A stretch of 64,000 bases of DNA from Gemmatimonadales bacterium (GTDB lineage: Bacteria; Gemmatimonadota; Gemmatimonadetes; Gemmatimonadales; GWC2-71-9), in assembly GCA_035488835.1 (NCBI GenBank), contig DATHKX010000057.1:21149-85148 (forward strand). The letters are read 5' to 3'. The stretch's first letter is position 1. Every line of letters begins with the position of its first letter. A program made the translations under genes and the position numbers. Positions 4,646-50,129 of this stretch are shown piece by piece. The notes beneath the pieces are model-generated. The model had not been told where the DNA came from and made no database searches. It saw nothing but the letters and a program-made list of their open reading frames with translations.

Positions 4646-4773
4646 GCTACCCGGACCCAAGTGGGCGGCGAACTGGCGATACGTCAGCGAGATACGCTCC
4701 CAGGGGCTGAGCAACCTGCAGGAGGATCGCGAGCCGTTCCGCTATCGGCCCTACCTTGGCTCCTTTTACGGCC

Positions 4774-4802
4774 TTGACAGTTCTTAAATCGTCTCTATTT
4801 TA
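4774..4802 (+). promoter_or_regulatory. Candidate sigma70-type promoter for the 4.9-12 kb operon
   Basis: TTGACA at 4774-4779, then a 16-17 nt spacer, then TATTTT/ATTTTA at 4796-4802. It sits in an AT-rich patch about 100 nt upstream of the GTG start at 4909. Confidence 0.35.
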
Positions 4803-4908
4803 GTGACGTTATGCGTCCCTAAAACACCGTGCGGTGGGACGCAACCAGGCCAGAAAAAGTGCGGGGTATGACCGTCGCCGTCAAGACGCCCGACTCCATG
4901 AATAGACC

Positions 4909-5457
4909 GTGAGATCCCTCCGACCGGTGGGAGTCGGGCTGGTGGTCGGCGCGATCGCGTTCGCGTGCGATCGCTCGCCCACCGCCGTGCCGATCCCAAC
5001 CCCGCTGGCGGCTCGGTCCCAACCCGGGCCAAGCAAGAAGTCCGGTCTGATCCCGTGTGCCCAATCCTATGACTCCGTAACCAAGCTCATCGGCCGACAG
5101 GGAGGGGCATTCCCCGTAGGCCCCCATTACGTGTTCGTCGATTCGCTGGCGTTGCGCGACACAGTGAGGATCACCATCGTGGCGCCAGCGGGCGCCGTGA
5201 GGTGGGTTCGGTTCCGGCCCGACGGCCTCGTCTTCCAGACGACCGTGGACGGTTGGTCCGCACTGCTCTACACGAATTACAAGGACTGCGGGGTGCCGAC
5301 GAGTGACACGCTCCGGATCGCTCAGGTCAGCGACTCGCTGCGCGTCCTCGGGTACCTGCAGACCTTCGTCAAATCCAAGAAGAACCCCTGGAGTCAAGGG
5401 ACACAATTCGTCGTCGGGCTGTTGCCGCATTTCTCGAACTACGCGGTCGCCTGGTAG
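4909..5457 (+). CDS. Lipoprotein with ZU5-like core and C-terminal HFSNYAVAW motif (paralog 1)
   Basis: Signal/lipobox ...LVVGAIAFAC. Core reads GGAFPVGPHYVFVDSLAL...VRFRPDGLVFQ. It ends ...LLPHFSNYAVAW. Confidence 0.7.
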   Translation: MRSLRPVGVGLVVGAIAFACDRSPTAVPIPTPLAARSQPGPSKKSGLIPCAQSYDSVTKLIGRQGGAFPVGPHYVFVDSLALRDTVRITIVAPAGAVRWVRFRPDGLVFQTTVDGWSALLYTNYKDCGVPTSDTLRIAQVSDSLRVLGYLQTFVKSKKNPWSQGTQFVVGLLPHFSNYAVAW

Positions 5458-5465
5458 GACTCACA

Positions 5466-6164
5466 ATGGCCTCGGAGAATCGTATGTCCCTTCGCCGTTC
5501 ACTGATCCCGCTGGCGCTCGCGCTGTTGGCCACCCGATGCGCCGACGGACCGCATCCCACGGCGGTGCAGCAGCCGACCGCCCCAGCGCCGCACTTCCTG
5601 CGGTGGGCCGGGGGCGCCGCGCCGCAGTTCACCTCGATCGGCGCGCTGTCGGGCGGGGTCGGTGATCGCGCTCGCCTCGCCGCTCCCGCGGGTGGGGTCA
5701 GTCTCGATCGGTATACGGCGTCGTTCTGGGCGGTCCGCGGCGAGCCGCGGTCTCTGCAGATCAACTACCTGAGCTCCACCGGGGACACCAGCTCGCCGTT
5801 CTTGCGGCTCACCACCACTGATCCGGCATATGTACCTGGGGTCGGCGACCTCGCGCCCGGCGACTCTGTGCTGATCACGGTGACGATCGACCCAGAGAAC
5901 ATCAAAGTGTCGCTCGAGCCGACAGGATTGCTGTTCGGCGAGCCCGGCCAGCTGGAGATCTCCTATGGCGGCGCCGATGGCGACCTGAACGGCGACGGTG
6001 TGCTGGACGACGCCGACTCCTACATCGAAGGCCGGCTGCTGGGGCTGTGGTATCGCGAGGGCACTGAGGGTGCGTGGGAGAGAATCCCTGCAGTGCAATT
6101 GCTCTCGGACAAGTCGTTCACCAGTGCGTTGCCCCACTTCTGCGAGTACGCGGTTTCCTGGTAG
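5466..6164 (+). CDS. Lipoprotein with C-terminal HFCEYAVSW motif (paralog 2; alternative start 5484)
   Basis: Signal MSLRRSLIPLALALLATRC. Contains a Ca-binding-like DGDLNGDGVLDDAD stretch. It ends ...ALPHFCEYAVSW. Only 8 nt separate it from paralog 1. Confidence 0.7.
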   Translation: MASENRMSLRRSLIPLALALLATRCADGPHPTAVQQPTAPAPHFLRWAGGAAPQFTSIGALSGGVGDRARLAAPAGGVSLDRYTASFWAVRGEPRSLQINYLSSTGDTSSPFLRLTTTDPAYVPGVGDLAPGDSVLITVTIDPENIKVSLEPTGLLFGEPGQLEISYGGADGDLNGDGVLDDADSYIEGRLLGLWYREGTEGAWERIPAVQLLSDKSFTSALPHFCEYAVSW

Positions 6165-6183: not shown

Positions 6184-8274
6184 ATGCACGCGTCGTCAAT
6201 CGTAATCGACAAGGCCCGGCAGCTCGCCGCCGCCGGACACCACGCCGAGGTCGTCGAGTACCTCGGCGGGCGACCGGGAAGTGAGCTGGCGGATTCGCCG
6301 AGCCTCGCGCTGCTGTACGGCACCGCGTACGCGCGGCTCGGGCGCCACGATGAGGGACAGCGGTGGCTCGACCTGGCGCTCGACCAGGCGCGCAAGCTTG
6401 ACGAGCAGACGGTCGAGCGTCACGCCCTCAATGCGCGGGGCGCCATCGCCCTGGTGAGCGGGCGGATCGACGAGGCAGCGGAGTACTTCACGCAGGCCCT
6501 CATGGCCGCCAGCCGTGACGGCGATCCTGCCACGACGGCCCGTTCCTCCAACAATCTCGGGATCATCAGCAACCTGCGGGGACGGCACGCGGAGGCGATC
6601 GGGTCCTGGGAGATCGCGGCTGCCGCCTTCGACCGCGCTGGTTTGCGCCAGGGCGTCGCCGAGTGCTACCACAACTTGGCGATCGCGTATCGGCAGCAGG
6701 GCGCGCTCGACCGCGCGCTGGCCACGGCCGACCGGGCCGTCGCCGAAGCCGAAGCGGCTGGAGATCGCACGCTCCTGGCGATGGCGCTCCGGGGGCACGC
6801 GGAGATCCGCTTGGTCCGCGGCGAGCCGGAGCTGGCGCGGGGTGAGCTGGACCGCGTTGGGGAGATCCGCCGCGGGCTGCGCGATACGGTCGGAGAGGCC
6901 GAGGACCTGCGGGTCGCGGCGTCGCTGTTGGTGGCCGAGGGCCAGCCGGCGGCCGCGGAGCGAGCCCTGCGCGAGGTGATCGCGCGGGCCGAGCCGCACG
7001 GGCGGCCGCAGCTTTTGGCGCAGGCGACCCGGGACTTGAGCGGGGTCCTGCGCCGCACCGGGCGGGACACCGAAGCCCATGCGGTGGCGCGCACGGCGCG
7101 GGCCATGTTCGCGCGCCTCGGCGCCGAGGGCGAAATCCGCGATCTGGCCGGTCAGGGCTGGGATGAGGCTTTCGCGGCCGAGCTGCGCGGGTCGCTGGCG
7201 CCGCTCCATGCGGCGCAGGAGTTGGCCGATGCCGGGCGCTATGCCGAGCTACTCAGCTACCTGAGTAAGCGCTCGCCGGACGAGCTCGAGCAGTCCCCCA
7301 TGCTGACCCTACTGTGTGGCCTCGCACACAGTCGACTGGGCCGGCTGGACCTGGGCCAGCAGTGGGCCATGGTCGCGCAGTTGCGGGCGCGCATGCTGGG
7401 GGATCGGAAGCTGGAAGCGCGGGCGCTCAACGTCTCCGGCGCCATCGCGCTGGAGCGGGGCGGCATCAGCGAGGCTACCTACTTCTTCACGCGGGCGCAG
7501 GAAAAGGCGATGCAGGATCATGACATGGCCGGCGTGGGCCGATGCGCCAACAACCTCGGCATCATCGCCAACATGCAGGGGGACTACACCCGGGCCGTCG
7601 GAGCGTACACCCGCGCGATCGCCGCGTACCAGAAGGCCCACCACGACCGCGGCATCATCGAGTCGCAGCACAACCTCGGGATCACGTACCGCGAGCAGGG
7701 GCAGCTGGACCGCGCGATGCGGGCCGCCGACGCGGCGCTGGGGAAGGCCGAGCGGCTGGGCGACCGGACGCTCGAGGCTCAGGCGCTCGCGGGACGGGCT
7801 GAGATCCGGGTCATTCGGGGTGAGCCCGAGCTCGCGATCCGCGACGCGGAGCGGGCGCTGGCGGTGCACCGCGAGCTGAAGGACGCTGTCCTCGAGACCG
7901 AGGACCTGCGAATCCTCGCCGTGGCGCTAGGCACCGCGGGGAAGACGCGAGAGGCCGAGGACATGCTCCGCGGGGTGATCGCCCGCGCGACGGCGCAGGA
8001 GCGGCCCCTGCTCGTCGCCGGTGCCCAGCGCGATCTCGCCCACCTGCTGGCGCTCCTGGGAGACGTCGCTGCGGCGAAACCGATGGCGCAGACGGCCCGT
8101 GCCACGTTCGACCGGCTGGGGGCGAAGGTGGAAATCCAGAAGCTGGACGTGTTGCTGGCGATCCCGGACCTCCTGGTTGCAAAGCAGGAGAGCGAACGCA
8201 TGACGGGATCGCATGCAGGACTGCGTGATGACGTACAACGAGGACGTTCGGGCGACCGTGCCCCACAGGAGTAA
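6184..8274 (+). CDS. Tandem-duplicated TPR-repeat protein (two homologous modules of about 340 aa)
   Basis: Two colinear modules share NNLGIISNLRG/NNLGIIANMQG, CYHNLAIAYRQQGALDRAL/SQHNLGITYREQGQLDRAM and RGEPELA in both. The second module starts near nt 7200. Confidence 0.8.
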   Translation: MHASSIVIDKARQLAAAGHHAEVVEYLGGRPGSELADSPSLALLYGTAYARLGRHDEGQRWLDLALDQARKLDEQTVERHALNARGAIALVSGRIDEAAEYFTQALMAASRDGDPATTARSSNNLGIISNLRGRHAEAIGSWEIAAAAFDRAGLRQGVAECYHNLAIAYRQQGALDRALATADRAVAEAEAAGDRTLLAMALRGHAEIRLVRGEPELARGELDRVGEIRRGLRDTVGEAEDLRVAASLLVAEGQPAAAERALREVIARAEPHGRPQLLAQATRDLSGVLRRTGRDTEAHAVARTARAMFARLGAEGEIRDLAGQGWDEAFAAELRGSLAPLHAAQELADAGRYAELLSYLSKRSPDELEQSPMLTLLCGLAHSRLGRLDLGQQWAMVAQLRARMLGDRKLEARALNVSGAIALERGGISEATYFFTRAQEKAMQDHDMAGVGRCANNLGIIANMQGDYTRAVGAYTRAIAAYQKAHHDRGIIESQHNLGITYREQGQLDRAMRAADAALGKAERLGDRTLEAQALAGRAEIRVIRGEPELAIRDAERALAVHRELKDAVLETEDLRILAVALGTAGKTREAEDMLRGVIARATAQERPLLVAGAQRDLAHLLALLGDVAAAKPMAQTARATFDRLGAKVEIQKLDVLLAIPDLLVAKQESERMTGSHAGLRDDVQRGRSGDRAPQE

Positions 8275-8282
8275 GAGAAGCC

Positions 8283-8819
8283 ATGAAGAAAGGTGAGATC
8301 ATGAAGGCCCTTCGTTTGCTGGTGGTCGCGCTGATCGTGGGCGGGTGCAGCGACCGCGCCCTCATCAGCGCTCCAAACGCGGCTCCGCAGGCCCCTGAGG
8401 CGTCGCTCATCGGAGACCTGCTCGGGGCCACGGGGCTCCTGCAATGCTCCAGCCTCTCGTACGCGTCGGCGACCCAGACGATCGGGTCTGGGGGCGGCAC
8501 GATTCGCGTCGGTCCGCACACCCTGACGGTCCCCGCCGGGGCGCTGCTCTCCCCGGTGGTGATCACGGGTGCGCTGGTGACGGGCCGCGGCGTCAACGCC
8601 GTCCGGTTCCAGCCGGAAGGGCTGAGGTTCCAACGGTCGGCGTATCTCACGATGAGCTACGCGAACTGCAACCTGCTCGGCCGGTTGCTGCCGAAGCGGA
8701 TCGCGTACGTCGGCGACGCGCTCAACATCCTTTCGTACCTCCTGTCGATCGACAACGTGCTCGGTACGAAGGTCACCGGGCGGATCGATCACTTCTCCAA
8801 CTACGCGGTCGCCTGGTGA
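8283..8819 (+). CDS. Lipoprotein with ZU5-like core and C-terminal HFSNYAVAW motif (paralog 3; alternative start 8301)
   Basis: Signal MKALRLLVVALIVGGC. Core reads IGSGGGTIRVGPHTLTVPAGALLSPVVITG...VRFQPEGLRFQRSAYLTMSY. It ends ...RIDHFSNYAVAW. Confidence 0.72.
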   Translation: MKKGEIMKALRLLVVALIVGGCSDRALISAPNAAPQAPEASLIGDLLGATGLLQCSSLSYASATQTIGSGGGTIRVGPHTLTVPAGALLSPVVITGALVTGRGVNAVRFQPEGLRFQRSAYLTMSYANCNLLGRLLPKRIAYVGDALNILSYLLSIDNVLGTKVTGRIDHFSNYAVAW

Positions 8820-10429
8820 CCGCGGCGGACCTGCTCCACGAAGGTCGCGCCCGAGAGCGGGCGGCTCGGATTCCCGAGGCGATCGCGTCGTACGAGGCGG
8901 CGATCGCCGCGGCGGAGCCCGCGGGAGAGGATGCGGCGTTGGCCGAGGCGCTGCGGCGCCTCGCCATCGTGCGCCACCGCCGGGGCGACTCCGCCGACGC
9001 GCGGGGGCTGTGCCGCCGCAGCCACGCGGTGGCGCTCCAGGCCGGTAACACCGTGCTCGCGGGCGAAGCGCTCAACACGCTCGGCGGGATCGACCTGGAG
9101 ACGGACGCCGTCGCCGATGCCCGCGAGAATTTCCTCCGCGCCCTGGAGCTGGGTGGGCAGAGTCGCGAGCTGCGCGCACGGGTGGAGCAGAACCTCGGCA
9201 TCCTCGCGAACATCCAAGGCGACTTCGACGAAGCGGTGGCGCGCTACGGGCGGTCCCTCGAGGCGTATCGCGCGTCCAACGACGAGCATGGCTGCGCGAT
9301 CGCCTATCACAACCTCGGCATGGCGAGCGCGGACCTGCAGCAATTCGACGAAGCGGAGCGCTACTTCCTGCAGAGCTACGAGATCGCCGAGCGCGCGGGC
9401 GACGTGCACCTCCAGGGCCTGTGCCTGGTCAACCACGCCGACGTGCATCTCGTGCGGGGGCGCTATGAGGACGCGCGGCGCAACGCGGAGGCCGCGCTCG
9501 TCACGTTCGATCGGCTCGACGCGCTCAGCGACAAGGCCAACGCGTATCGCGTTCTCGGCATGGTGTTCCGCGAGACCGGCCGGCCCGTGCTCGCCGAGGC
9601 GCGGCTGCGGTCAGCGATCGAGCTGGCGGTGAGTGCGGGCGCGGCATTGAACGAGGCGGAGGCCTCGCGCGAGCTGGCCCTGCTCCACCAGGCGATGGGG
9701 CGCAACCAGGAGGCGCTGAGCCTGCTCAACGCCGCGCATCGCCTGTTCGGGCGGCTCGACGCGCGTCGCGAGCTGGTCCATGTCGATGGCAAGATGGCCG
9801 AGCTCGAGGCCACCTACCTCGCGGTGGTGCGCGAGTGGGGCCAGTCCATCGAGTCCGCCGACCCCTACACCTTCGGCCACTGCGAGCGCGTGGCGCGGCA
9901 TGGCGTGGCCGTGGCCCGGGCGCTCGGGATGGACGAGCACGCCCAGACGACGCTCCGGCTCGGCGCCTACCTCCACGACCTGGGAAAAGTGCGCGTGCCG
10001 CACGAGATCCTGAGCAAGCCCGGCCCGCTGACACGCGACGAGCTCGAGGTGGTGCAGATGCATCCGATCTGGGGGATCGAGCTCCTCGCGAGCGTCGAGT
10101 TCCCCTGGGACTTGAAGCCCATCATCCGCTGGCACCACGAGCGCTATGATGGCACGGGATACCCGGATCGCCTGCGGGGAGACGAGATCCCACTTTCCGC
10201 GCAAGTCGTGGGGATCGCGGACGTCTACGACGCGCTCACCACCGCGCGTCCCTACCGGCCGGCCTTCTCCCGTGGGGCGGCGCTCAAGCAGATCGAGAGC
10301 TGCCGTGGGTTTTGGTCGAAGGCCGTGTATGGCGCCTTCGTCGCTTCGCTGGGCCAACCAGAAGCGCCGATGCGGGCGCACCCGCTACACGGCATAGTTG
10401 CGTCTCCGCCACACGCGGCCCGTCGCTAA
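8816..10429 (+). CDS. TPR module fused to an HD-GYP domain (cyclic-dinucleotide phosphodiesterase family)
   Basis: An in-frame GTG start overlaps the upstream stop (GTGA). The N-terminal TPR module is colinear with the 6184-8274 modules (QNLGILANIQGD, AYHNLGMASADL). The C-terminus has HDLGK...HHERYDGTGYP, the HD-GYP signature. Confidence 0.85.
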   Translation: MTAADLLHEGRARERAARIPEAIASYEAAIAAAEPAGEDAALAEALRRLAIVRHRRGDSADARGLCRRSHAVALQAGNTVLAGEALNTLGGIDLETDAVADARENFLRALELGGQSRELRARVEQNLGILANIQGDFDEAVARYGRSLEAYRASNDEHGCAIAYHNLGMASADLQQFDEAERYFLQSYEIAERAGDVHLQGLCLVNHADVHLVRGRYEDARRNAEAALVTFDRLDALSDKANAYRVLGMVFRETGRPVLAEARLRSAIELAVSAGAALNEAEASRELALLHQAMGRNQEALSLLNAAHRLFGRLDARRELVHVDGKMAELEATYLAVVREWGQSIESADPYTFGHCERVARHGVAVARALGMDEHAQTTLRLGAYLHDLGKVRVPHEILSKPGPLTRDELEVVQMHPIWGIELLASVEFPWDLKPIIRWHHERYDGTGYPDRLRGDEIPLSAQVVGIADVYDALTTARPYRPAFSRGAALKQIESCRGFWSKAVYGAFVASLGQPEAPMRAHPLHGIVASPPHAARR

Positions 10430-10518
10430 AGCATAGCAGCGCGCGGCACCTCTCTTGCGGCCCCGCCACAACCGGCTGCAGCACTTTCCGGTGGGGGTCC
10501 ATCACAGAGGGGGATTCC

Positions 10519-11952
10519 ATGAAACGTTGGCTACTTGCCGCCGCGCTGCTCGCCGGCGCGGCGTGCGACTCGCAGCGCGAACCCGCGGCACCGAGCCGCA
10601 CCGTCGATCCCGCGCTCACGGCGGCGCTCGCGACCGTCACGCCGAGCGACAGGCTGGTGGTGATCGTCAACTACGACGAAACGGCGACCACGTCGGATGC
10701 GATGAGCGCGGCCATCATGAACGTCGGCTCCGGCGTGATCCAGTTCAACAACCTGGACCTCGTGGCCGCCTTCGCCACGCCGGCCGAGATCACGGCGATC
10801 AGCGCGCTGCCGGGCGTGCAGGGCGTGTACGCGAACAAGCAGCTCAGGTACTCGATGCTGCACGAGAGCGTCCCGACCATCCGAGCCGATGCGGTCCACG
10901 CATCGGGCATCACCGGAAAAGGCGTCGGGATCGCCATCCTCGACTCGGGGATCGACGGGTTGTACAACCCCGACCTGCACTATCCCGACAAGACGGTCCA
11001 GAACATCAAGGTGATCGCGAACCTCACCGATCTGTTCACGTTCAAGGGCTCGATCAACAAGACCGCGAAGGCAGCGAACCTGTTCGTCGAGAATCTGCCC
11101 AACAGCGAGACTTCGGTCGGCCACGGCACCCACGTCGCCGGCATCGCGGCGGGCCTGGGCACGGCGTCCGGGGGCTATTACACGGGGGTCGCGCCGGGGG
11201 CGAAGCTCATCGGCATCGGGACGGGCGACATCCTGTTCATCTTCTGGGCCCTGGCGGGCTTCGACTACATCCTCGATCACCAGCAGGCCTACAACATCAA
11301 GGTTGTGAACAACTCCTGGGGAACGAGCGGTCCGTTCGATCCGAAGGATCCGATCAACAAGGCGACGAAGAAAGTGGCCAGCAAGGGCATCACGGTCGTG
11401 TTCGCCGCGGGGAACGACGGCCCCGATCAGAACACGCTCAATCCGTACAGCGTGGCGCCCTGGGTGATCGGCGTGGCGGCGGGCTGCAAGAATCTGCCCG
11501 ATCCGACCAACTCCGCAATCCACTGCGCCGATCAGACGGGACAGAATCGGGCCGCGGTGCTGGCCGACTTCTCGTCGCGGGGCATCCCCGGTGATCCGAT
11601 GTACCATCCCGACGTCACCGCGCCGGGCGTGCACATCGTGTCCACCCGCGCCTCGACCGGCACGGTGCTCAACGCCAGCGACGCGAACCACGACTTCGAT
11701 CTGACGAGCAGCTGCGCCATCAGCTTGGCGAACGAGCAGTATTACACCTGCGCGTCCGGCACCTCGATGGCGACCCCCCACGTCGTCGGCGTGGTGGCGC
11801 TGATGCAGGAAGCGGCAGGGGGGCGCCTGACGCCCAATCAGATCGCGTCGGTCCTGACGCAGACGGCGCGCCCGCTCCCGGGGTTTGCTCTATGGGAAGT
11901 GGGAGCGGGGTACGTGGACGCGCTGGCCGCGGTGAACGCGGTACGGCGGTAG
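10519..11952 (+). CDS. Exported subtilisin-like serine protease (peptidase S8)
   Basis: RBS agagggggA upstream. Signal/lipobox MKRWLLAAALLAGAAC. Catalytic triad contexts AILDSGID, HGTHVAGIAAG and SGTSMATPHVVG are all present. Confidence 0.9.
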   Translation: MKRWLLAAALLAGAACDSQREPAAPSRTVDPALTAALATVTPSDRLVVIVNYDETATTSDAMSAAIMNVGSGVIQFNNLDLVAAFATPAEITAISALPGVQGVYANKQLRYSMLHESVPTIRADAVHASGITGKGVGIAILDSGIDGLYNPDLHYPDKTVQNIKVIANLTDLFTFKGSINKTAKAANLFVENLPNSETSVGHGTHVAGIAAGLGTASGGYYTGVAPGAKLIGIGTGDILFIFWALAGFDYILDHQQAYNIKVVNNSWGTSGPFDPKDPINKATKKVASKGITVVFAAGNDGPDQNTLNPYSVAPWVIGVAAGCKNLPDPTNSAIHCADQTGQNRAAVLADFSSRGIPGDPMYHPDVTAPGVHIVSTRASTGTVLNASDANHDFDLTSSCAISLANEQYYTCASGTSMATPHVVGVVALMQEAAGGRLTPNQIASVLTQTARPLPGFALWEVGAGYVDALAAVNAVRR

Positions 11953-13894: not shown

Positions 13895-14154
13895 GCAACA
13901 ATTCTCCGCCGAATGCCGCCCGTCCGCTAGGGCGTTTTTGCGGCACGAGGGGGCGGGGATGCGACAGGGCGGCCTGTGGCGGGGCGCAGCGCGACCCGCC
14001 CGGCAGCTTCATGGATGGATTGTTCCCTCGAGCGCGGACGAGGGGACGAAGGCTCGCAATCAACTCCGAAACGTACCAGCGAGCGTATCGGCCGCTCGGC
14101 GGCTGGCGTCAGAAGGATGCACGAGCCGCCAAGGGGCCAGCCACAGACGTCCGC

Positions 14155-14676
14155 TCAGTGAGCCCCATTGGGCATGACCTCATGGTGAGCGGCGTGATGC
14201 TCGGTGCGTTGGAAGGCCAGGAACGCGTGGATGGCCGCGACGGCTGCCGAGTCTGTGGTCCACATGCGAACCTCGGCGCCGCGTGGACGATCGGTAGCCT
14301 CATAGGTGATCTTGCTGCCGCGAGCCGCCATGACCGAGGTACCTGGGACTACGCGGGCATGCACCTGGAACGGTCTGGCAAAGTCTCCGGCTCGAAACGC
14401 CGTCGCGATGTCGCGCATGTGGTGTCGGATCGCGACGATCCCGGCGGTGTCAGAGAGATTGTCAGCGTCAAGGACGATGCGGCCACCATCCCCAAGGTCC
14501 TCAAAAACATGCGCCGATGCGTATTGATCCACGCCCATGACGGTTTGACCGCGTGCCTGCAGGGCCGCGAACGCGCTGTCCGATTGGTGTCTAACAGATT
14601 CGCCCCCGCGCTCGCAGTTGGCGAAAGCGATAATCAGGGCGAGGGTCGAGATCTTCGCGGCGTAGTTTCTTGTCAT
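14155..14676 (-). CDS. Hypothetical lipoprotein with His-rich C-terminus
   Basis: An internal ATG gives MTRNYAAKISTLALIIAFANC (lipobox). The C-terminus reads HHAAHHEVMPNGAH. The track ORF starts at 14739. Confidence 0.5.
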   Translation of the reverse strand: MTRNYAAKISTLALIIAFANCERGGESVRHQSDSAFAALQARGQTVMGVDQYASAHVFEDLGDGGRIVLDADNLSDTAGIVAIRHHMRDIATAFRAGDFARPFQVHARVVPGTSVMAARGSKITYEATDRPRGAEVRMWTTDSAAVAAIHAFLAFQRTEHHAAHHEVMPNGAH

Positions 14677-15009
14677 GGATGGCTCGGGGGCGCCTTGCGG
14701 ATCGCGCCTAAGCTGCGGGCGAAGGGCTGGCCGGCGCAAGTACGGTGAAGGGCTGCTCCCTTCACCGAATCCGTCGTCGTTCTTCTTGCCGCTAAACGTA
14801 GACCGCTAATCTGTTGCGATCGTTAGGCCATCGCAGCCCCGCGCGTTGTCGGCCGAGGGCGATTCCGCTACGCCTCGACGTAAATCCGTTACGCGGTGAT
14901 CGGGATCACGACGCGTTCGCCCTGTGGGTGCTATCAACCAGTGAGCGTGCCGTGTTCAATTCGTCCTGCGAATGTCGCAAAAGGGACGGGCGTTGCTGCA
15001 TTCTGGGAA

Positions 15010-15051
15010 TGGTCGCGACAGGACTCCAACCTGTGACCTCTGGCATGTGAG
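15010..15051 (-). other. tRNA-like 3'-half fragment (anticodon loop to discriminator; Val-CAC-like)
   Basis: Reverse complement reads CTCACAT-GCCAG-AGGTC-ACAGG-TTGGAGT-CCTGT-CGCGACC-A. The T-arm is 16/17 identical to the tRNA-Ser(UGA) T-arm at 18168-18184. No matching 5' anticodon-stem strand or acceptor strand lies upstream. The T-loop has G where the conserved C56 is expected. Confidence 0.35.
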
Positions 15052-15093
15052 AGTCGTAGTTCTCGTGATGCCAACAAAGAGTGGAGGAAAACC

Positions 15094-15942
15094 ATGGCAT
15101 ACCAGGCCGAAATCAGTCGTAAGAACCCGGGTTGTTTCTTGTTTTTGGTGGACCAGTCAGAGTCGATGGAAGACCCTTTTGGCGGCGGAGAGGCTGGCAG
15201 ACAGAAGGCCGAAGAGCTCGCGACGATACTCAACAAGCTCATTCATAACCTGTGCATCCGTTGCTCCAAGTCGGACTCTATGTACGACTACTTTCATGTC
15301 GGTGTGCTGGGCTACAGCGAAGCGAGCTGTAAACCAGCGCTCGGCGGTGAACTGAGCGGGCGCTCTCTGGTACCGATCAGTGAATTGGCCAATAAGCCGT
15401 TGCGCATCGAAGACAGGGTAAAGAAATCGGACGATGGCGCCGGCGGAGTCATGGACCAAACCGTCAAATTTCCAGTCTGGTTCGATCCATACTCGAAGGG
15501 GGGCACTCCGATGTGCGCCGCGCTCAAGGAGGCAACCCAGATTACCCAGACGTGGTGTCAGGAGCATCCGAACGGCTTTCCGCCGATCGTTATCAACATC
15601 ACCGACGGCGAGGCAACGGATGGAGATCTCGTTGCCGAGGCGCGTAAATTAACGGCGGTCAGTGGCGAAGACGGTTCGGTGTTGCTCTTCAACATCCATC
15701 TTTCGTCGACGGCCGGACCATCGATCGAATTACCGGGCAACGGCAACAAACTGCCGGATCAACATGCCAAACAGCTCTTTGAAGCCTCATCGACGCTCAC
15801 ACCATTCATGGTTGCACGCGCGACAGAGCTGGGTATGCCGGCCGAGGAAAACTCTCGAGGATTCATCTTTAACGCGCAACCGTTGCACGTAATCCATTTT
15901 CTCGATATCGGCACGCGACCGGCGAATGTGCATCTGCGCTGA
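15094..15942 (+). CDS. von Willebrand factor A (vWA) domain protein, TerY-like
   Basis: RBS GGAGG upstream. MIDAS elements are present: DQSES (DxSxS), GGTPM and the TDGEATDG Asp. 282 aa. Confidence 0.85.
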   Translation: MAYQAEISRKNPGCFLFLVDQSESMEDPFGGGEAGRQKAEELATILNKLIHNLCIRCSKSDSMYDYFHVGVLGYSEASCKPALGGELSGRSLVPISELANKPLRIEDRVKKSDDGAGGVMDQTVKFPVWFDPYSKGGTPMCAALKEATQITQTWCQEHPNGFPPIVINITDGEATDGDLVAEARKLTAVSGEDGSVLLFNIHLSSTAGPSIELPGNGNKLPDQHAKQLFEASSTLTPFMVARATELGMPAEENSRGFIFNAQPLHVIHFLDIGTRPANVHLR

Positions 15943-15953
15943 GTACCACTGCA

Positions 15954-16754
15954 ATGGGCACCTCCGGCGGTGAAGCACGCCACGCGGCCAACGAGTGCGA
16001 CATCAAGGTCTTCTGCTGCCCAAAGCTGGGCAACAGCCTTGAGGAGTACGAGGATGCCTGGGCGCATCGGCAAACTCGTCCCCCGGTCGGCATCCGCGTG
16101 GCGGTGGCTGACGGCGCCACCGAAAGCAGTTTTGCCAAGCTATGGGCCGTGCTGTTGGCCGAAAGCTATGTGCGAAGTGAGGTCACCGGGGCAGAGTTTT
16201 TTGCGCGGTTGAACCCGGCGCGCCGCCTCTGGCGGCGAAGATTAGCGGGCCGACCTCTCCCCTGGTTCGCTAGCGAAAAGGCCGAGCAGGGGGCCTTTGC
16301 GGCTTTCCTCGGTGTCCAGATTGACGCTCACACGAACCGTTGGACGGCGCTGGCCATGGGCGACTGTTGTCTTATGCAGCTCGATAACGTCGGGAAAAGG
16401 ATGCGGGTGGTCGAAACGTTTCCCTTACAGAAATCTTCGCAATTCACGATGAGCCCTTATCTGATCGGCTCCAGGTCGAATGGGGAATCACTGAACGAAC
16501 GGATACAAATCAGCAAGGGCAGCCTGCGCGATGGAGACATGCTGCTGCTCGCCACGGATGCGATGGCCGCCTGGCTGCTTAAACGGCATGAAGAGGGGCG
16601 ACCATTATGGAATTGGCTTTACCGGAAGCTCGGCACGCCTGAGAGCTTTGCCGCGATCGTCGCCTACGGCCGCAAAAATGGATTGCGCAACGACGACTTC
16701 ACCCTTGTCCGTGTCATTCATCACGATTCACGGGTTGAAGCGAAGGAGAGGTAG
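15954..16754 (+). CDS. PP2C-family protein phosphatase-like protein
   Basis: Metal-binding-type motifs EEYEDAW, VAVADGATES, AMGDCCL and LLLATDAMAAW occur in PP2C order. The gene starts 11 nt after the vWA gene. Confidence 0.72.
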   Translation: MGTSGGEARHAANECDIKVFCCPKLGNSLEEYEDAWAHRQTRPPVGIRVAVADGATESSFAKLWAVLLAESYVRSEVTGAEFFARLNPARRLWRRRLAGRPLPWFASEKAEQGAFAAFLGVQIDAHTNRWTALAMGDCCLMQLDNVGKRMRVVETFPLQKSSQFTMSPYLIGSRSNGESLNERIQISKGSLRDGDMLLLATDAMAAWLLKRHEEGRPLWNWLYRKLGTPESFAAIVAYGRKNGLRNDDFTLVRVIHHDSRVEAKER

Positions 16755-16756
16755 CG

Positions 16757-17800
16757 ATGCGTGCATGGCCAGACCTGACTGAATACCATGAGGCGGTTCA
16801 GCACCCGCCAAAGGCTTTTGCCGACCCAGGATTGAAAGCGGTCACCCTCGAGCTCGATCGGTTCGGTATGCCCAAGCCGGCCACCGGCGGCAACGCCGTG
16901 GTCTACAAGGCCAACGAACCGGGCGGACTTTTGACATTCAAGAAGACCTGGGCAATTCGCTGCTTCCTGCGCCCGATCAGCGACCATGCCGAACGTTATG
17001 AGGCGATCTCCAAACATCTTCGCAAGGTGCGCCTGCCCTATGATGTCAATTTTCAGTTTCTCAAGCAGGGCATTCAAATTCGCTCCAACTGGTTCCCTAT
17101 CGTCAAAATGCAATGGGCCAAGGGCGACCTTCTGCACAGTCACATTGAGAAGCATCTAGGCTATCCGGCCGCACTGGCGGCATTGCGGGTAAAATGGGTC
17201 ACACTTGTTCGCCACCTCGAAGCCGCCCAGGTGGCGCACGGCGATTTACAGCACGGTAATATCCTGGTGCGCGGCGGATCGATCCAGTTGGTGGACTACG
17301 ACGGCATGTGGGTGCCGGCCTTACGGGGCCGCCACGCCACGGAAATCGGCCACCGTGCCTACCAACATCCCGAACGGAGCGAGCAAGACTACGGCCAAGA
17401 GATTGATCGTTTTTCAGCTCTCGTCATTTATCTATCGCTGGCGGCGCTGGAGAGGGATGTCACCCTGTGGGAACGTTTTCATACCGGCGACAATCTGATC
17501 TTCGTGCGCGAAGATTTCCAGCAGTTGGGTCGATCGGCAATTTGGCAACAATTACGCCGTATCGGATCGGGGGAAATCGATCAGCTCGCCGCTGTCGTGG
17601 CGGCCATGGCGCAGCAGCATCCGATGAAGGTCAGCAATCTCGATAGCGTTCTCCAAAATCCGGCGAGCTACAAGTTCCCTAGCTCGATTCCGGCGTCGAC
17701 TCCGCCCCAGCGAGTCGCTCCCAAGCCGGCGCGCGTGCCGACGCCGCCAGTGCCGAGTTGGATGAAAAAGGGCGGTTATCGTGATCATTCGGATGACTGA
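16757..17800 (+). CDS. Ser/Thr protein kinase-like protein with Pro-rich tail
   Basis: RBS GGAGAGG upstream. Gly-loop-like TGGNAVVYKA, catalytic loop HGDLQHGNIL, a DYDG (DFG-equivalent) motif and GHRAYQHPER are present. The gene starts 2 nt after the PP2C stop. Confidence 0.8.
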   Translation: MRAWPDLTEYHEAVQHPPKAFADPGLKAVTLELDRFGMPKPATGGNAVVYKANEPGGLLTFKKTWAIRCFLRPISDHAERYEAISKHLRKVRLPYDVNFQFLKQGIQIRSNWFPIVKMQWAKGDLLHSHIEKHLGYPAALAALRVKWVTLVRHLEAAQVAHGDLQHGNILVRGGSIQLVDYDGMWVPALRGRHATEIGHRAYQHPERSEQDYGQEIDRFSALVIYLSLAALERDVTLWERFHTGDNLIFVREDFQQLGRSAIWQQLRRIGSGEIDQLAAVVAAMAQQHPMKVSNLDSVLQNPASYKFPSSIPASTPPQRVAPKPARVPTPPVPSWMKKGGYRDHSDD

Positions 17801-18159
17801 GGATCATCGGCGGCATTGCTCGTCGCTGACCCTTTCCATCCACTCGACATTTTTGCCGTAGTGACTGCGTCGGCCGGATCGGCTTGCGGCACACGCTCGG
17901 CAGTACAAACCCAGCGCCTCACGAGACACCGAAGCCCGTCACGTAACTCTAGCCCCGCACACAGCGCCGGAATAGCAACGCGCGCGCGTGCGGAATCATG
18001 AGCGCGCGGCTCGTCCGGTCGCGGCGGGCGCACATGATGCTTGTCCACCATGCCGGAAGGGTGATCGCACGGGCTTTGACGCGATCCTCGGCTCGACGGC
18101 GGCGAGTGGAGGCGCCTGACCCCAATGGCCGCGACGCGGCAAGTTGTTGCGGTAGAAAG

Positions 18160-45308: not shown

Positions 45309-46828
45309 ACCCGATCCCCGTGCTGTCCGCGACCGAGGCCGCCGCCTGGGATTCGGCCGCCCGCACGCAATACCGCATTCCCTCCCGCGTGCTCATGGAG
45401 ACCGCGGGACGCGCGGTCGCGCACCTCATCGTGCGCGACTATCCCGCCGTGCTCGGCCGCGGGGCGCTGGTCGTCGCCGGGGCGGGGAACAACGGGGGAG
45501 ACGGGTGGGTGGTGGCGCGCGCGCTGCATGCGAGCGGCGTCGCCGTCTGGGTGGCCGCGCTCGACCCCAAGACCGACGACGCCATCGACAACCGCGCGCT
45601 CGCCCGCATGGACGGCGCGCGCGAGACGGGCCGGGAAGAGCCGTGGCCCGCCACGGCCGTGGTGATCGACGCGCTGCTCGGCACCGGCGCCGCCGGACCG
45701 GCGCGCGGCGACGTGCTGGCGCTGGCCCAGCGGCTGGTCGCGTACGGAGCCCCGGTCGTCGCGATCGACGGCCCCACGGGACTCGACCTGTCGAGCGGCG
45801 AGGCACACGGGCCGGTGCGCGCCGAGCTGTCCGTCACATTCGGGGGCCCGCGCCGCGGCCACCTGCTCGCGCGTGAGTGGTGCGGCAAGATCGTGGTCGT
45901 CGACATCGGGCTGCCGCCCGCCGATCCCGTATGGCCCGTGCTGGTAACGGACGCGTGGGCGGGGGCGCGGCTGCCGAAGCTCACCCCGACGATGCACAAG
46001 GGCGACCGCGGCCGCGTCACGGTGGTCGGCGGCGCCAACGGCATGACGGGCGCCGCGCTGCACGCCGCGCGCGGGGCGCTCGCGGCCGGCGCGGGGCTCG
46101 TGAAGCTCGTGGCCGCGAAGGAAACGATCGAGGCGGCGCGCTCGAGCCTCCCCGACGTGCTCACGGTCGAGTCGGCGCTCGGCCCCGAGCTCGAGGCTGA
46201 GGCGGCGGAAGCACTCGAGTGGGCCGACGCCCTCGTGATCGGTCCAGGGCTGGGCCGCGAGCCGCCGCGCGCCCAGTTCCTCCATGCTGCGCTGGCGCGC
46301 CGCCCGATCCCCACCGTGCTCGACGCCGATGCCCTCACGCTGTTCCGCGGCCCCGCGGAGCGGCCGGTGGTGCTCGCGCCGCACCTGGGCGAGTTCCGCG
46401 CCCAGTTCGGCGACGAGCTCGCCGACGCGGCGGCGAACGACCGTTGGGCAGCCGCGGCGAAGGCCGCTCAGAAGGTGAAGGGCACCGTGCTCCTCAAGGG
46501 CGTGCCCACCGTCATCGCCGACCTGCGCGGGCCGATTCACGTGGTCGCGAGCGGCAACCCGGGACTCGCCACCGGCGGCTCGGGCGACCTGCTCGCGGGC
46601 TTCATCGGCGCCTTCCTCGCGCGCGGCAGCGCGGGGCCCGAGGCCGCCGCGCTGGGCGCCCATGCGCTGGGCCGGGCGGCGGAGCACGGCGCGCGCCAGT
46701 GGACGGCTCGCAGCCTGCGTCCCGCCGATGTCCTGGCCGCGCTGCCCGAGATCTGGCGCGCGTGGACCAACACGCAGCCGGTGGGGCCTCCCGTGCTCAC
46801 GGTCCTGGAGCCGCCGGAGACGGCGTGA
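45305..46828 (+). CDS. nnr: Bifunctional NAD(P)H-hydrate repair enzyme (epimerase/dehydratase)
   Basis: The GTG overlaps the upstream stop. YjeF-N motif VVAGAGNNGGDGWVVAR and C-terminal carbohydrate-kinase motif GGSGDLLAG. Confidence 0.88.
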   Translation: MNPIPVLSATEAAAWDSAARTQYRIPSRVLMETAGRAVAHLIVRDYPAVLGRGALVVAGAGNNGGDGWVVARALHASGVAVWVAALDPKTDDAIDNRALARMDGARETGREEPWPATAVVIDALLGTGAAGPARGDVLALAQRLVAYGAPVVAIDGPTGLDLSSGEAHGPVRAELSVTFGGPRRGHLLAREWCGKIVVVDIGLPPADPVWPVLVTDAWAGARLPKLTPTMHKGDRGRVTVVGGANGMTGAALHAARGALAAGAGLVKLVAAKETIEAARSSLPDVLTVESALGPELEAEAAEALEWADALVIGPGLGREPPRAQFLHAALARRPIPTVLDADALTLFRGPAERPVVLAPHLGEFRAQFGDELADAAANDRWAAAAKAAQKVKGTVLLKGVPTVIADLRGPIHVVASGNPGLATGGSGDLLAGFIGAFLARGSAGPEAAALGAHALGRAAEHGARQWTARSLRPADVLAALPEIWRAWTNTQPVGPPVLTVLEPPETA

Positions 46829-47786
46829 CGCGCCGGTCACTCCGCCTGGGCTCAGGGGGTGAGTTCGACCGCCTGCGCGCCATTTTCGCGGCGCTCGGCG
46901 CCGCGGGCCGCGACCTGGGTGACGATTGCGCGCTGCTCCCCGTCGGCGGCCGGACCATCGCGATCAGTATCGATCTGTCGCTCGAAGCGGTGCACTTCCG
47001 CACCGACTGGCTCTCGTTTCGAGAGATCGGCTGGCGCGCGACGGCGGCCGCATTGTCGGATCTCGCCGCGGACGGCGCGACCCCGCTCGGGGTCCTCGTT
47101 TCCCTCGGCGTGCCCGGCAACCGGCAACGGCGTCCCGGCAACGCCTCACCCGCCGTTCAGATCATGGCGGGAGTGGGATCCGCCGCCCGCAGCGTCGGAG
47201 CCAAGGTGCTCGGGGGCGACATGGCGCGCTCGCCCCGCTACCTCGTGGACGTCTGCGTGCTCGGGCGCGTCGCGCGGCCGGTGCGGCGGAGCGGCGCGCG
47301 TCCGGGTGACGGGCTGTGGGTCACGGGGCGGCTTGGTGGTGCGGGGCTCGCGCTCGCCGCGCTCCGGGCGGGCCGTCGCCCAGCGCCGACTGTACGGCGC
47401 CGCTTCGCCCGTCCGGTACCGCGCATCGCCGCGGGGCGCTGGCTGGCGCGGCGTGGAGCGCGCGCCATGATCGATATCTCCGACGGGCTGGCGGGGGACG
47501 CGGGGCACCTCGCGGCGGCGTCGGGCGTCGGGATTGCGATCGAGCTGGAGCGCGTTCCGTGCTGGCCGGGTGTCACGCCGCGCGCGGCCGCGGCGAGCGG
47601 CGAGGAGTACGAGCTGCTGGTCGCCCTGCCGCGCAGCTTCGGAACCGCGGGCGCCCGCGCCTTTCGCCGCGCCACGGGGCTGCCCTTGACGCGCATCGGC
47701 GCGTGTACCGCGGGCCGCGGCTTGCGGATCACCCACGAGGGGCGACTGATCACGCCTCCCCGCGGCTTCGATCATTTCCGCGCGCG

Positions 47787-47790
<4 letters not shown>
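46825..47790 (+). CDS. thiL: Thiamine-monophosphate kinase
   Basis: The GTG overlaps the nnr stop. GDDCALL, AIRS-family N and C domains, and DISDGL. Confidence 0.85.

Positions 47791-50129
<2,339 letters not shown>

Follow-up and report, generated by a model that had tools for sequence, protein, structure and literature searches.

Predicted ZU5/GAIN-like lipoproteins are encoded together with TPR and HD-GYP proteins in a conserved Gemmatimonadota operon

The operon and its TPR proteins

A 64,000-nt stretch of a Gemmatimonadales genome (GenBank assembly GCA_035488835.1, contig DATHKX010000057.1, positions 21,149 to 85,148; the whole stretch is hereafter called the window) contains a tight plus-strand operon of three paralogous lipoprotein genes, which we call lipo1, lipo2 and lipo3, and two genes for TPR proteins, tprA and tprHD, the latter with an HD-GYP domain (Table 1). 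According to the window translations and gene coordinates, the intergenic gaps from lipo1 to tprHD measure 8, 19 and 8 nt and are followed by a 4-nt GTGA overlap between the lipo3 stop and the tprHD start. Six co-directional, closely packed genes are present in all, the last of which encodes an S8 peptidase, and the operon region has a GC content of about 70%. An earlier sequence-only reading of this locus was attached to the interval 6184–10429, which omits lipo1 and lipo2, located just 5' of tprA. It had described a 696-residue protein of two colinear TPR modules, a single homologous module fused to HD-GYP, the GTGA overlap, and a count of two lipoproteins with two modules followed by one with one. 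All of this is borne out in the window, and the strings quoted as shared between the modules are present in the translations without exception.

The halves of the tprA product align colinearly over 311 residues (48.6% identity, E 1e-77), a similarity well above chance and above a generic TPR resemblance, and the tprHD module matches the two halves at 31% (E 7e-20) and 33% (E 7e-29) identity. Both proteins are recognized by the Pfam TPR_12 model (E 1.6e-37 for tprA and 2.4e-39 for tprHD). A signal peptide is absent from ten tprA orthologs, whose common N-terminus reads M-x-[ST]-S-S-x-V-[IV]-[DE]-K-A-x-Q-L-A-A-A-G, and tprHD orthologs leave no room for one. Both proteins are accordingly predicted to be cytoplasmic, in line with the sequence-only reading, which had seen no signal peptide either.

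In a structural model of the tprHD protein (predicted local distance difference test, pLDDT, 85), sixteen helices forming eight TPRs are followed by a connector helix and the HD-GYP domain. Its closest solved folds in Foldseek are the 8-repeat TPRs of LGN/Pins, then designed consensus TPRs and OGT, with SPY and KLC also among the top 50 matches. LGN/Pins TPRs accommodate extended peptides in the groove on their inner side. The C-terminal domain matches the c-di-GMP (cyclic di-GMP)-bound DvhD (9rbz) and PmGH (4mcw) structures and scores well above the Pfam HD_5 threshold (E 2.2e-33; 115.9 bits against a cut-off of 27.2). The HD (HDLGK) and HHERYDGTGYP motifs are intact, and H387, D388, H440, H441, E442, G448, Y449 and P450 are nearly invariant in 51 sequences. 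Motifs and model together thus identify tprHD as a predicted regular HD-GYP c-di-GMP phosphodiesterase, comparable to RpfG, PmGH and DvhD, with an unusual sensor: an 8-repeat TPR module takes the place of REC or another common sensor domain, and the enzyme is accompanied by a paralogous double-TPR protein without an output domain.

Table 1. Features of the operon in window coordinates
Feature	Position	Strand	Description
Candidate operon promoter, AT-rich, 5' of lipo1	4774..4806	+	sigma-70-like TTGACA-N17-TATTTT; weak, consensus resemblance only
lipo1	4909-5457	+	182 aa; N-type; lipobox AFAC; C-terminal end HFSNYAVAW
lipo1 H174-F175-S176	5428-5436	+	heptapeptide SNYAVAW at 5434-5454
lipo2	5466-6164	+	232 aa; E-type paralog; C-terminal end HFCEYAVSW
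lipo2 H224-F225-C226	6135-6143	+	heptapeptide CEYAVSW at 6141-6161
tprA	6184-8274	+	696 aa; two TPR modules, ~6184-7203 and 7204-8172; without output domain
lipo3	8283-8819	+	178 aa; N-type; lipobox VGGC; C-terminal end HFSNYAVAW
lipo3 H170-F171-S172	8790-8798	+	heptapeptide SNYAVAW at 8796-8816
tprHD	8816-10429	+	537 aa; TPR module ~8816-9820, HD-GYP domain ~9821-10429
S8 subtilisin-like peptidase	10516-11952	+	478 aa; lipoprotein-type signal LAGAAC; Pfam Peptidase_S8 4.7e-41

The lipoprotein family, its fold and its C-terminal tail

The products of lipo1 and lipo3 are 37% identical (E 4e-24), whereas the paralog lipo2 is more distant (E 1e-4 and 3e-4) and has ~45 additional, inserted residues; the C-terminal motif is common to all three. 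Direct scans of the three proteins gave no Pfam or NCBIfam match. Homology searches returned 811 and 857 relatives, none of them with a protein name, and all named sources were metagenome-assembled genomes (MAGs) of Gemmatimonadetes/Gemmatimonadales. A family profile search of 1.84 billion cluster representatives recovered 2,584 representatives (50% identity clusters) at E ≤ 1e-3 and 916 at E ≤ 1e-10, and nearly all listed matches are 165–235 aa long and reach the very end of both profile and protein. The operon lipoproteins hence belong to a family that has no Pfam or NCBIfam model and whose source-named homologs were all found in Gemmatimonadota.

In the top 149 representatives (clustered at 50% identity), on which the tail statistics are based, 133 end in the pattern x4-[YFW]-x3-[WYF]-COOH, with the consensus H-F-S-x-Y-A-V-A-W. 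HFS is present in 125 of these 133, and free variation is confined to the position that follows the Ser. The nucleophile position may be taken by Ser, Cys or Thr; in the lipo2 subfamily, Cys is found in 44/120 members. Among the lipoprotein copies encoded in the related loci described below, HF[SCT] is kept by 259 of 285 (91%).

At the opposite end, the lipobox Cys is invariant in 79/79 aligned members, and lipobox-like patterns (a pattern match only) occur in 100/120, 114/120 and 109/149 homologs. The signal of lipo2 (5466-5540) resembles a twin-arginine signal (SLRRSLIPL...ATRC), for which the consensus is S/T-R-R-x-F-L-K with a basic c-region; the motif S-x-R-R-x-L-I-P is found in 112/120 lipo2-type homologs as opposed to 2/120 of the lipo3 type, and position -1 of the lipobox is unusual in the lipo2 type in being an Arg (AARC or ATRC). 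The twin-arginine motif and the Arg in the c-region suggest that lipo2-type lipoproteins may fold in the cytoplasm and be exported afterward by the twin-arginine translocation (Tat) pathway. A dockerin/EF-hand-like calcium-binding loop, DGDLNGDGVLDDAD, is inserted into the ZU5-like sandwich of lipo2 at ~5970-6015 (residues ~169-183). This insertion is limited to the lipo2 subfamily, and weak matches to Pfam Dockerin_1 occur in 28/79 members.

An AlphaFold2 model of lipo3, built on the 79-sequence alignment, starts with a signal helix, which is followed by a disordered linker at residues 19-46; residues 50-178 fold into a beta-sandwich modelled with pLDDT above 90. In this model, the strand 163-170 ends at His170, Phe171 and Ser172 form a two-residue turn, and the last strand (173-177) consists of NYAVA. 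Every one of the top 20 Foldseek matches in the PDB is a ZU5 or a GAIN domain (probability 0.97-1.00; E 2e-5 to 4e-2; template modelling score 0.41-0.53, normalised on the full 178-residue query), including the ZU5 domains of ankyrin (3f59 and 4d8o), UNC5b (3g5b) and ZO-1 (2kxs) and the GAIN domains of BAI3 (4dlo) and CD97 (9mqr). A member-by-member Pfam scan gave sub-threshold ZU5 matches in 32 of the 79 aligned sequences (best E 0.0015), which fall on the N-terminal GGxL...V.VP.GAL signature. By predicted fold and by motif, the lipo1-3 family thus represents minimal ZU5/GAIN-like lipoproteins of the ZU5/GAIN(MAIN) superfamily.

ZU5, GPS and Nup98 domains have previously been united as one autopeptidase superfamily (PMC3482391). 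GAIN domains have their autoproteolysis site at an H-hydrophobic-S/T motif in the last beta-turn. In bacterial MAIN domains, Edman degradation maps the cut between the F and the S of HFS, and cleavage is abolished by an S-to-A substitution and preserved by S-to-T (bioRxiv 10.64898/2026.05.12.724683). The operon lipoproteins share the beta-sandwich, the H-hydrophobic-S/T motif before the last strand and the mapped HF/S site itself, and the hydrophobic strand that stays bound after the cut in MAIN and GAIN domains is predicted here as well. By homology with these domains, the lipoproteins probably cleave themselves at HF/S and keep the heptapeptide as their last strand. As the lipid anchor is N-terminal and the protein ends after the last strand, such cleavage would free the heptapeptide only. 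The heptapeptide tails pointed out by the sequence-only reading are therefore plausibly real peptides, with HF/S lying at a ZU5/GAIN-type autoproteolysis site.

Their architecture differs from that of all MAIN proteins described so far. MAIN/GAIN proteins have a mean mass of 158 kDa and consist of a signal peptide, ectodomains, the domain itself and a C-terminal anchor or seven-transmembrane region (Brogan & Rudner, bioRxiv 10.64898/2026.05.12.724683), whereas the operon lipoproteins are ~18 kDa, carry an N-terminal lipid, lack ectodomains and end 7 residues after the cut site. MAIN proteins are from Bacillota; the operon lipoproteins are from Gemmatimonadota and are linked to cytoplasmic TPR/HD-GYP genes. 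The ZU5 autopeptidases of PIDD, UNC5CL and the NLRP1/CARD8 FIIND are similar to the lipoproteins in that the best structural matches are ZU5 domains and the nucleophile is Ser/Cys, and the site types HFS (PIDD) and SFS (FIIND) both occur in the lipoprotein family. However, the lipoproteins lie below the Pfam threshold and have no UPA, death or toxin domain after the cut site. The tethered agonist ('Stachel') of adhesion G-protein-coupled receptors has the consensus T-x-F-A-V-L-M, which the tail S-N-Y-A-V-A-W resembles. Bacterial ZU5 domains have so far been found at the N-terminus of huge RHS/Tc toxins (polymorphic toxins) or of surface enzymes (PMC3482391), and the MAIN preprint gives the C-terminal fragment no signalling role (bioRxiv 10.64898/2026.05.12.724683).

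Arrangement and surroundings in related loci

Scanning 185,579 species genomes with the lipoprotein motif as anchor yielded 14 loci, all from Gemmatimonadota except one differently labelled soil MAG. Further loci came from metagenome contigs, in which tprA served as the anchor and the best 80 of 344 confirmed matches were kept. In the resulting 94 related loci, we mapped lipoprotein genes, TPR modules, HD-GYP, S8 and uracil-DNA glycosylase (UDG) genes by profile searches. Dereplication at 90% tprA identity gave 41 clusters, with 25 resolved three-module arrangements. Clusters of neighbouring stop-to-stop open reading frames (ORFs) are noisy at 70% GC because of antisense ghost ORFs and were used only after Pfam confirmation.

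The adjacency of lipoprotein and TPR genes is conserved throughout this set. A TPR gene is adjacent in 14/14 genome loci found via the lipoprotein motif, all tprA-anchored metagenome loci with upstream sequence have at least one lipoprotein gene in front, and across the 94 loci the two kinds of gene lie side by side on the same strand wherever the flank sufficed, with a median gap of 20 nt between lipoprotein gene and tprA. The adjacency is also subfamily-specific: an E/Q-type tail (x-[EQ]-Y-A-V-[SC]-W) is encoded by the immediate upstream neighbour of tprA in 84/92 cases and an N-type tail (S-N-Y-A-[VI]-A-W) by that of tprHD in 39/43, both counts being from non-dereplicated loci of partly shared ancestry. 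The gene directly after a lipo2-type gene is always tprA.

Gene numbers behave differently on the two sides. Module number is fixed across loci, with 2 modules in the double-TPR protein and 1 in the HD-GYP protein, and no three-module TPR protein was found in related loci; ~3-kb tblastn matches considered as such a protein proved to be tprA directly followed by tprHD. Lipoprotein genes number 1-5 upstream of tprA and 0-3 between tprA and tprHD, in 11 different arrangements with a total of 1-6 lipoproteins per three modules (mode 3, in 11/25). Written as (lipoproteins upstream of tprA, lipoproteins between tprA and tprHD), the window-type arrangement (2,1) is the commonest with 7 of 25, followed by (3,0) with 4, (2,0) with 3, (1,0), (2,2) and (3,1) with 2 each, and (2,3), (3,2), (4,2), (5,0) and (5,1) with 1 each. 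The 2+2 / 1+1 count is therefore the commonest of many arrangements and not the conserved feature. The sequence-only reading had paired lipoproteins with TPR modules; the pairing stands as a conserved, subfamily-specific adjacency and fails as a fixed 1:1 stoichiometry, which is refuted by the reading's own criterion, co-variation of module and lipoprotein numbers in related genomes, as the modules stay at 2 + 1 while the lipoproteins vary.

Variants of the operon differ further. Gemmatimonadaceae-type loci (L012, L013 and L095) have one lipoprotein gene and a TPR-HD-GYP gene only, and variants without the HD-GYP gene have 2 lipoproteins and 2 modules (L007, L022 and L023-type). In the 90% cluster to which the window belongs, one lineage has neither the HD-GYP gene nor lipo1 and retains the adjacent lipo3. 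In two loci (L051 8600-19700 and L052 5600-16700), a duplicated cassette comprises eight lipoprotein genes for five modules, in the order two lipoprotein genes, double-TPR, five lipoprotein genes, double-TPR, one lipoprotein gene, TPR-HD-GYP. Each half of tprA is far nearer to its ortholog than to its sister half, so that the module duplication predates all sampled lineages. The closest modules are the two tprA halves, giving the order ((N,C),HD), while the closest lipoproteins are lipo1 and lipo3, giving ((1,3),2); the co-divergence of modules and lipoproteins that the sequence-only reading had led one to expect is thus not seen.

The surroundings of the operon in related loci suggest c-di-GMP signalling. 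A GGDEF gene directly follows tprHD in several lineages, and a GGDEF gene together with a sigma-54 activator gene lies directly upstream of the operon in 12 of the 44 loci with enough flank. Examples of a sigma-54 enhancer-binding protein (often after a GGDEF gene) or a GGDEF cyclase flanking the operon are found at L008 8000-9460, L080 1279-3686 and L096 11674-12609. Neither of the two flanks the window operon, which is instead preceded by UDG and a candidate sigma-70-like promoter. The sigma-54 activators upstream of many related loci led us to consider a sigma-54 promoter for the operon as well; matches in the window do not exceed chance, and the region 5' of lipo1 has none. A 1-mismatch -24/-12 match, likewise at chance level, is located at 10444-10458 in the 86-nt gap 5' of the S8 gene.

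The S8 subtilase, which carries the lipoprotein-type signal MKRWLLAAALLAGAAC, was rejected as a core component, since it is present only in loci with window-type flanks, that is, with UDG upstream; the gene lies downstream only in L003, L015, L016, L018, L020, L023, L027, L028, L030 and L037. The 5' neighbours of the window operon are a Glu-tRNA synthetase gene and the UDG gene, and its 3' neighbour, on the opposite strand, is a CDP-alcohol phosphatidyltransferase gene. In close relatives without lipo1 and the TPR-HD-GYP gene, a 200-aa ORF lies between UDG and lipo2 (L023 2274-2876, minus strand). Its motif SPWDGISLTYRQFAAELG is kept in the window as a short remnant, SPWERISLTYRQFAAHLG, at ~4655-4714 (minus strand), which indicates a recent indel at the junction of UDG and the lipoprotein genes.

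In a Pfam scan of most of the 43 predicted genes of the window, the remaining scanned genes are housekeeping genes, and so are the neighbours examined around related loci. The GC content falls from ~0.69 to 0.59 over 4 kb at 14001-18000, where ORFs give weak VWA and protein-kinase-like matches and several have no family; this segment was possibly inserted from a foreign source. GC content peaks (0.76) at 46001-48000. An ORF at 45439-46467 (minus strand) reaches 82% GC at second codon positions, suggestive either of a wrong reading frame or of a low-complexity protein rich in Ala, Gly, Pro and Arg.

Proposed working of the operon and rival explanations

We propose that the operon is a conserved signalling unit, in which variable self-cleaving lipoproteins with one tail and three fixed TPR modules tune c-di-GMP, a proposal that we put at a little under an even chance. 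What the data show is the predicted fold, the motif, the C-terminal truncation across the family, the synteny and the variable lipoprotein number beside fixed modules, whereas cleavage and recognition of the tail are inferred. The extracytoplasmic part of the operon would be a birth-and-death family of proteins in which ~30 disordered residues join a lipid-anchor signal to one ZU5/GAIN-like sandwich. The Ser or Cys would attack the Phe carbonyl in an N-to-O or N-to-S acyl shift and cut the chain at HF/S, after which the last strand, S/C-x-Y-A-[VI]-[AS]-W-COOH, would be held non-covalently only. The cytoplasmic part is fixed, with three LGN-like 8-repeat modules, one of them fused to HD-GYP. 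The relation would be many-to-few, any lipoprotein supplying the same near-invariant C-terminal tail, and this near-invariance favours one common signal for the three fixed modules and not private pairs.

Since cleavage would liberate only a peptide and the operon has no transducer, information passing between lipoproteins and TPR proteins would have to be the tail itself. The heptapeptide could be freed when the sandwich is unfolded or degraded and then be imported; alternatively, the tail of the lipo2-type precursor could be contacted in the cytoplasm before export. In either case, TPR grooves would bind the tail, HD-GYP activity would be modulated and c-di-GMP would change. Recognition of the tail by the TPR modules is somewhat less likely than not, with the chances divided about evenly between imported peptide and pre-export contact. 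Its most specific version, a 'Stachel-only' heptapeptide (S-x-Y-A-V-A-W) that is released on unfolding, degradation or export and read by TPR modules setting HD-GYP activity, we consider unlikely.

Several observations weigh against the proposed signalling. The TPR proteins are predicted to be cytoplasmic and the lipoproteins exported, so that the partners occupy different compartments; neither the Pfam-scanned window genes nor the related-locus neighbours examined were found to include Opp/Dpp or another peptide importer, and no membrane transducer was seen in the operon or in either of these sets. In 10/25 arrangements, the gene that directly precedes the HD-GYP gene is not a lipoprotein gene. 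The tail is a predicted strand of the sandwich, and its conservation could therefore be purely structural. Consistent with this possibility, 26 of 285 copies (~9%) have lost the His or the Ser of the motif and retain the Y-A-V-x-W tail. The fold assignment is affected as well: the Pfam ZU5 model (PF00791) has a gathering score of 21 bits, which the family does not reach (best listed match 17.8 bits, E 0.0041), and when PDB sequences were searched with a profile built on the family alignment, a single chance match was returned (E 1.4), so that the assignment rests on structure prediction and Foldseek. The degenerate motifs include SFS, SYF, SWS, QHS, GRS, LFA and others (in L008, L010, L039-42, L047-48, L061, L069-71, L074, L088 and others). 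As SFS is the motif of the NLRP1/CARD8 FIIND, some of the degenerate copies may still cleave.

Some of these points speak for a co-regulation explanation, in which the lipoproteins would be envelope or adhesion proteins merely co-expressed with a c-di-GMP module (HD-GYP, GGDEF, sigma-54 activator), the TPRs would sense something else, for instance another protein, and cleavage, if it occurs, would be maturation and not signalling. Different compartments and the lack of a visible transducer or importer in the operon agree with it, free copy-number drift is expected for surface proteins, and the conservation of the tail fits a structural strand that persists without catalytic residues. Operons for c-di-GMP signalling also often include their envelope outputs. 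We nevertheless consider co-regulation on its own rather unlikely, if a serious contender, as it leaves unexplained why H-F-[S/C/T] is retained in 91% of copies when the product is only seven residues long, why the output-less double-TPR gene is constantly present, and why lipoprotein subfamilies are faithful to particular TPR genes across gaps of ~20 nt or overlaps. A link without import would be offered by export surveillance or chaperoning, where TPRs would grip the Y-A-V-x-W-COOH end of the precursor and would serve either as proofreading chaperones of Tat/Sec export or as backlog sensors that reset c-di-GMP. TPR domains commonly bind C-termini, as in Hop and PEX5, whose TPRs grip C-terminal peptides. 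The position of the carboxylate is conserved, given that 133/149 representatives end exactly at the tail, the twin-arginine motif and c-region Arg of the lipo2 type suggest folding before export, and tprA always directly follows the lipo2-type gene. Yet the RR motif occurs in only 2/120 N-type lipoproteins, the tail of the folded domain is a sandwich strand and not a free end, and the need for HFS catalysis is left unexplained, which makes this explanation quite improbable.

The sequence-only reading had favoured cognate ligand-receptor pairs akin to the RRNPP class. Spelled out, each lipoprotein would release its own heptapeptide as the ligand of one module, with lipo1 acting on the N-module, lipo2 on the C-module and lipo3 on the HD-GYP module. 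The counts match in the window and in the commonest arrangement (7/25), the lipoprotein total equals the module total in 11/25 and in variants without the HD-GYP gene, and adjacency is subfamily-specific. Against such pairs, modules are constant while lipoproteins vary from 1 to 6 per three modules, the lineage that lacks the HD-GYP gene also lacks lipo1 and not the adjacent lipo3, the lipoprotein order ((1,3),2) is at odds with ((N,C),HD) for the modules, and the TPR fold is LGN-like and not RRNPP-like. The identical tails of lipo1 and lipo3 cannot discriminate between modules, and the different module specificities that had been expected for the SNYAVAW and CEYAVSW tails find little room in tails that are nearly invariant across paralogs. 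Private pairs are thus very improbable. The resemblance to RRNPP receptors also did not hold at the level of fold: Rap, NprR, PlcR, PrgX and AimR are absent from the top 50 Foldseek matches of tprHD, which are led by LGN/Pins, and no RRNPP family is among the Pfam or NCBIfam matches of the operon proteins.

What the operon shares with the RRNPP systems of Firmicutes (Rap/Phr, NprR, PlcR/PapR and PrgX) is a cytoplasmic TPR gene beside a gene for an exported precursor, and a candidate ligand within the size range of 5-8 residues. S8 proteases process Phr peptides, and an S8 gene is also located downstream in the window operon. Here, however, the precursor is not a small propeptide but a folded lipoprotein of 18-25 kDa that is predicted to cleave itself, the output is HD-GYP rather than an HTH or phosphatase, and the TPR fold is LGN/Pins-like. 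Moreover, the tail is nearly invariant instead of diversified, copy numbers are unpaired, and no Opp was found among the genes scanned. Gemmatimonadota are a diderm phylum. The operon hence resembles RRNPP systems by analogy only, with fold, pairing and diversification unmatched.

Our literature searches found no description of a lipoprotein-TPR-HD-GYP cassette, and the underlying lipoprotein-TPR system is previously undescribed and experimentally tractable. Autoproteolytic GAIN/ZU5-type domains have only recently been shown to work in bacteria, where they are thought to shed large surface proteins and where the fragment that stays behind has no known signalling role. The operon lipoproteins represent this domain at its minimum, the sole possible cleavage product being a conserved seven-residue strand, and the structure of the operon ties them to cytoplasmic TPR proteins and a predicted c-di-GMP phosphodiesterase in Gemmatimonadota, a soil phylum that is abundant but little studied. 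Were the tail a ligand, the operon would link self-cleavage in the envelope to second-messenger control and offer a simple, tethered-agonist-like experimental system. Should the 'Stachel-only' version be true, it would be the first case of a prokaryotic GAIN-like domain whose C-terminal fragment acts in signalling, and would represent both a counterpart of tethered agonists in prokaryotes and an RRNPP-like peptide circuit outside Firmicutes. If the tail is not a ligand, the operon would still define a new lipoprotein family and a new class of TPR sensors for HD-GYP enzymes.

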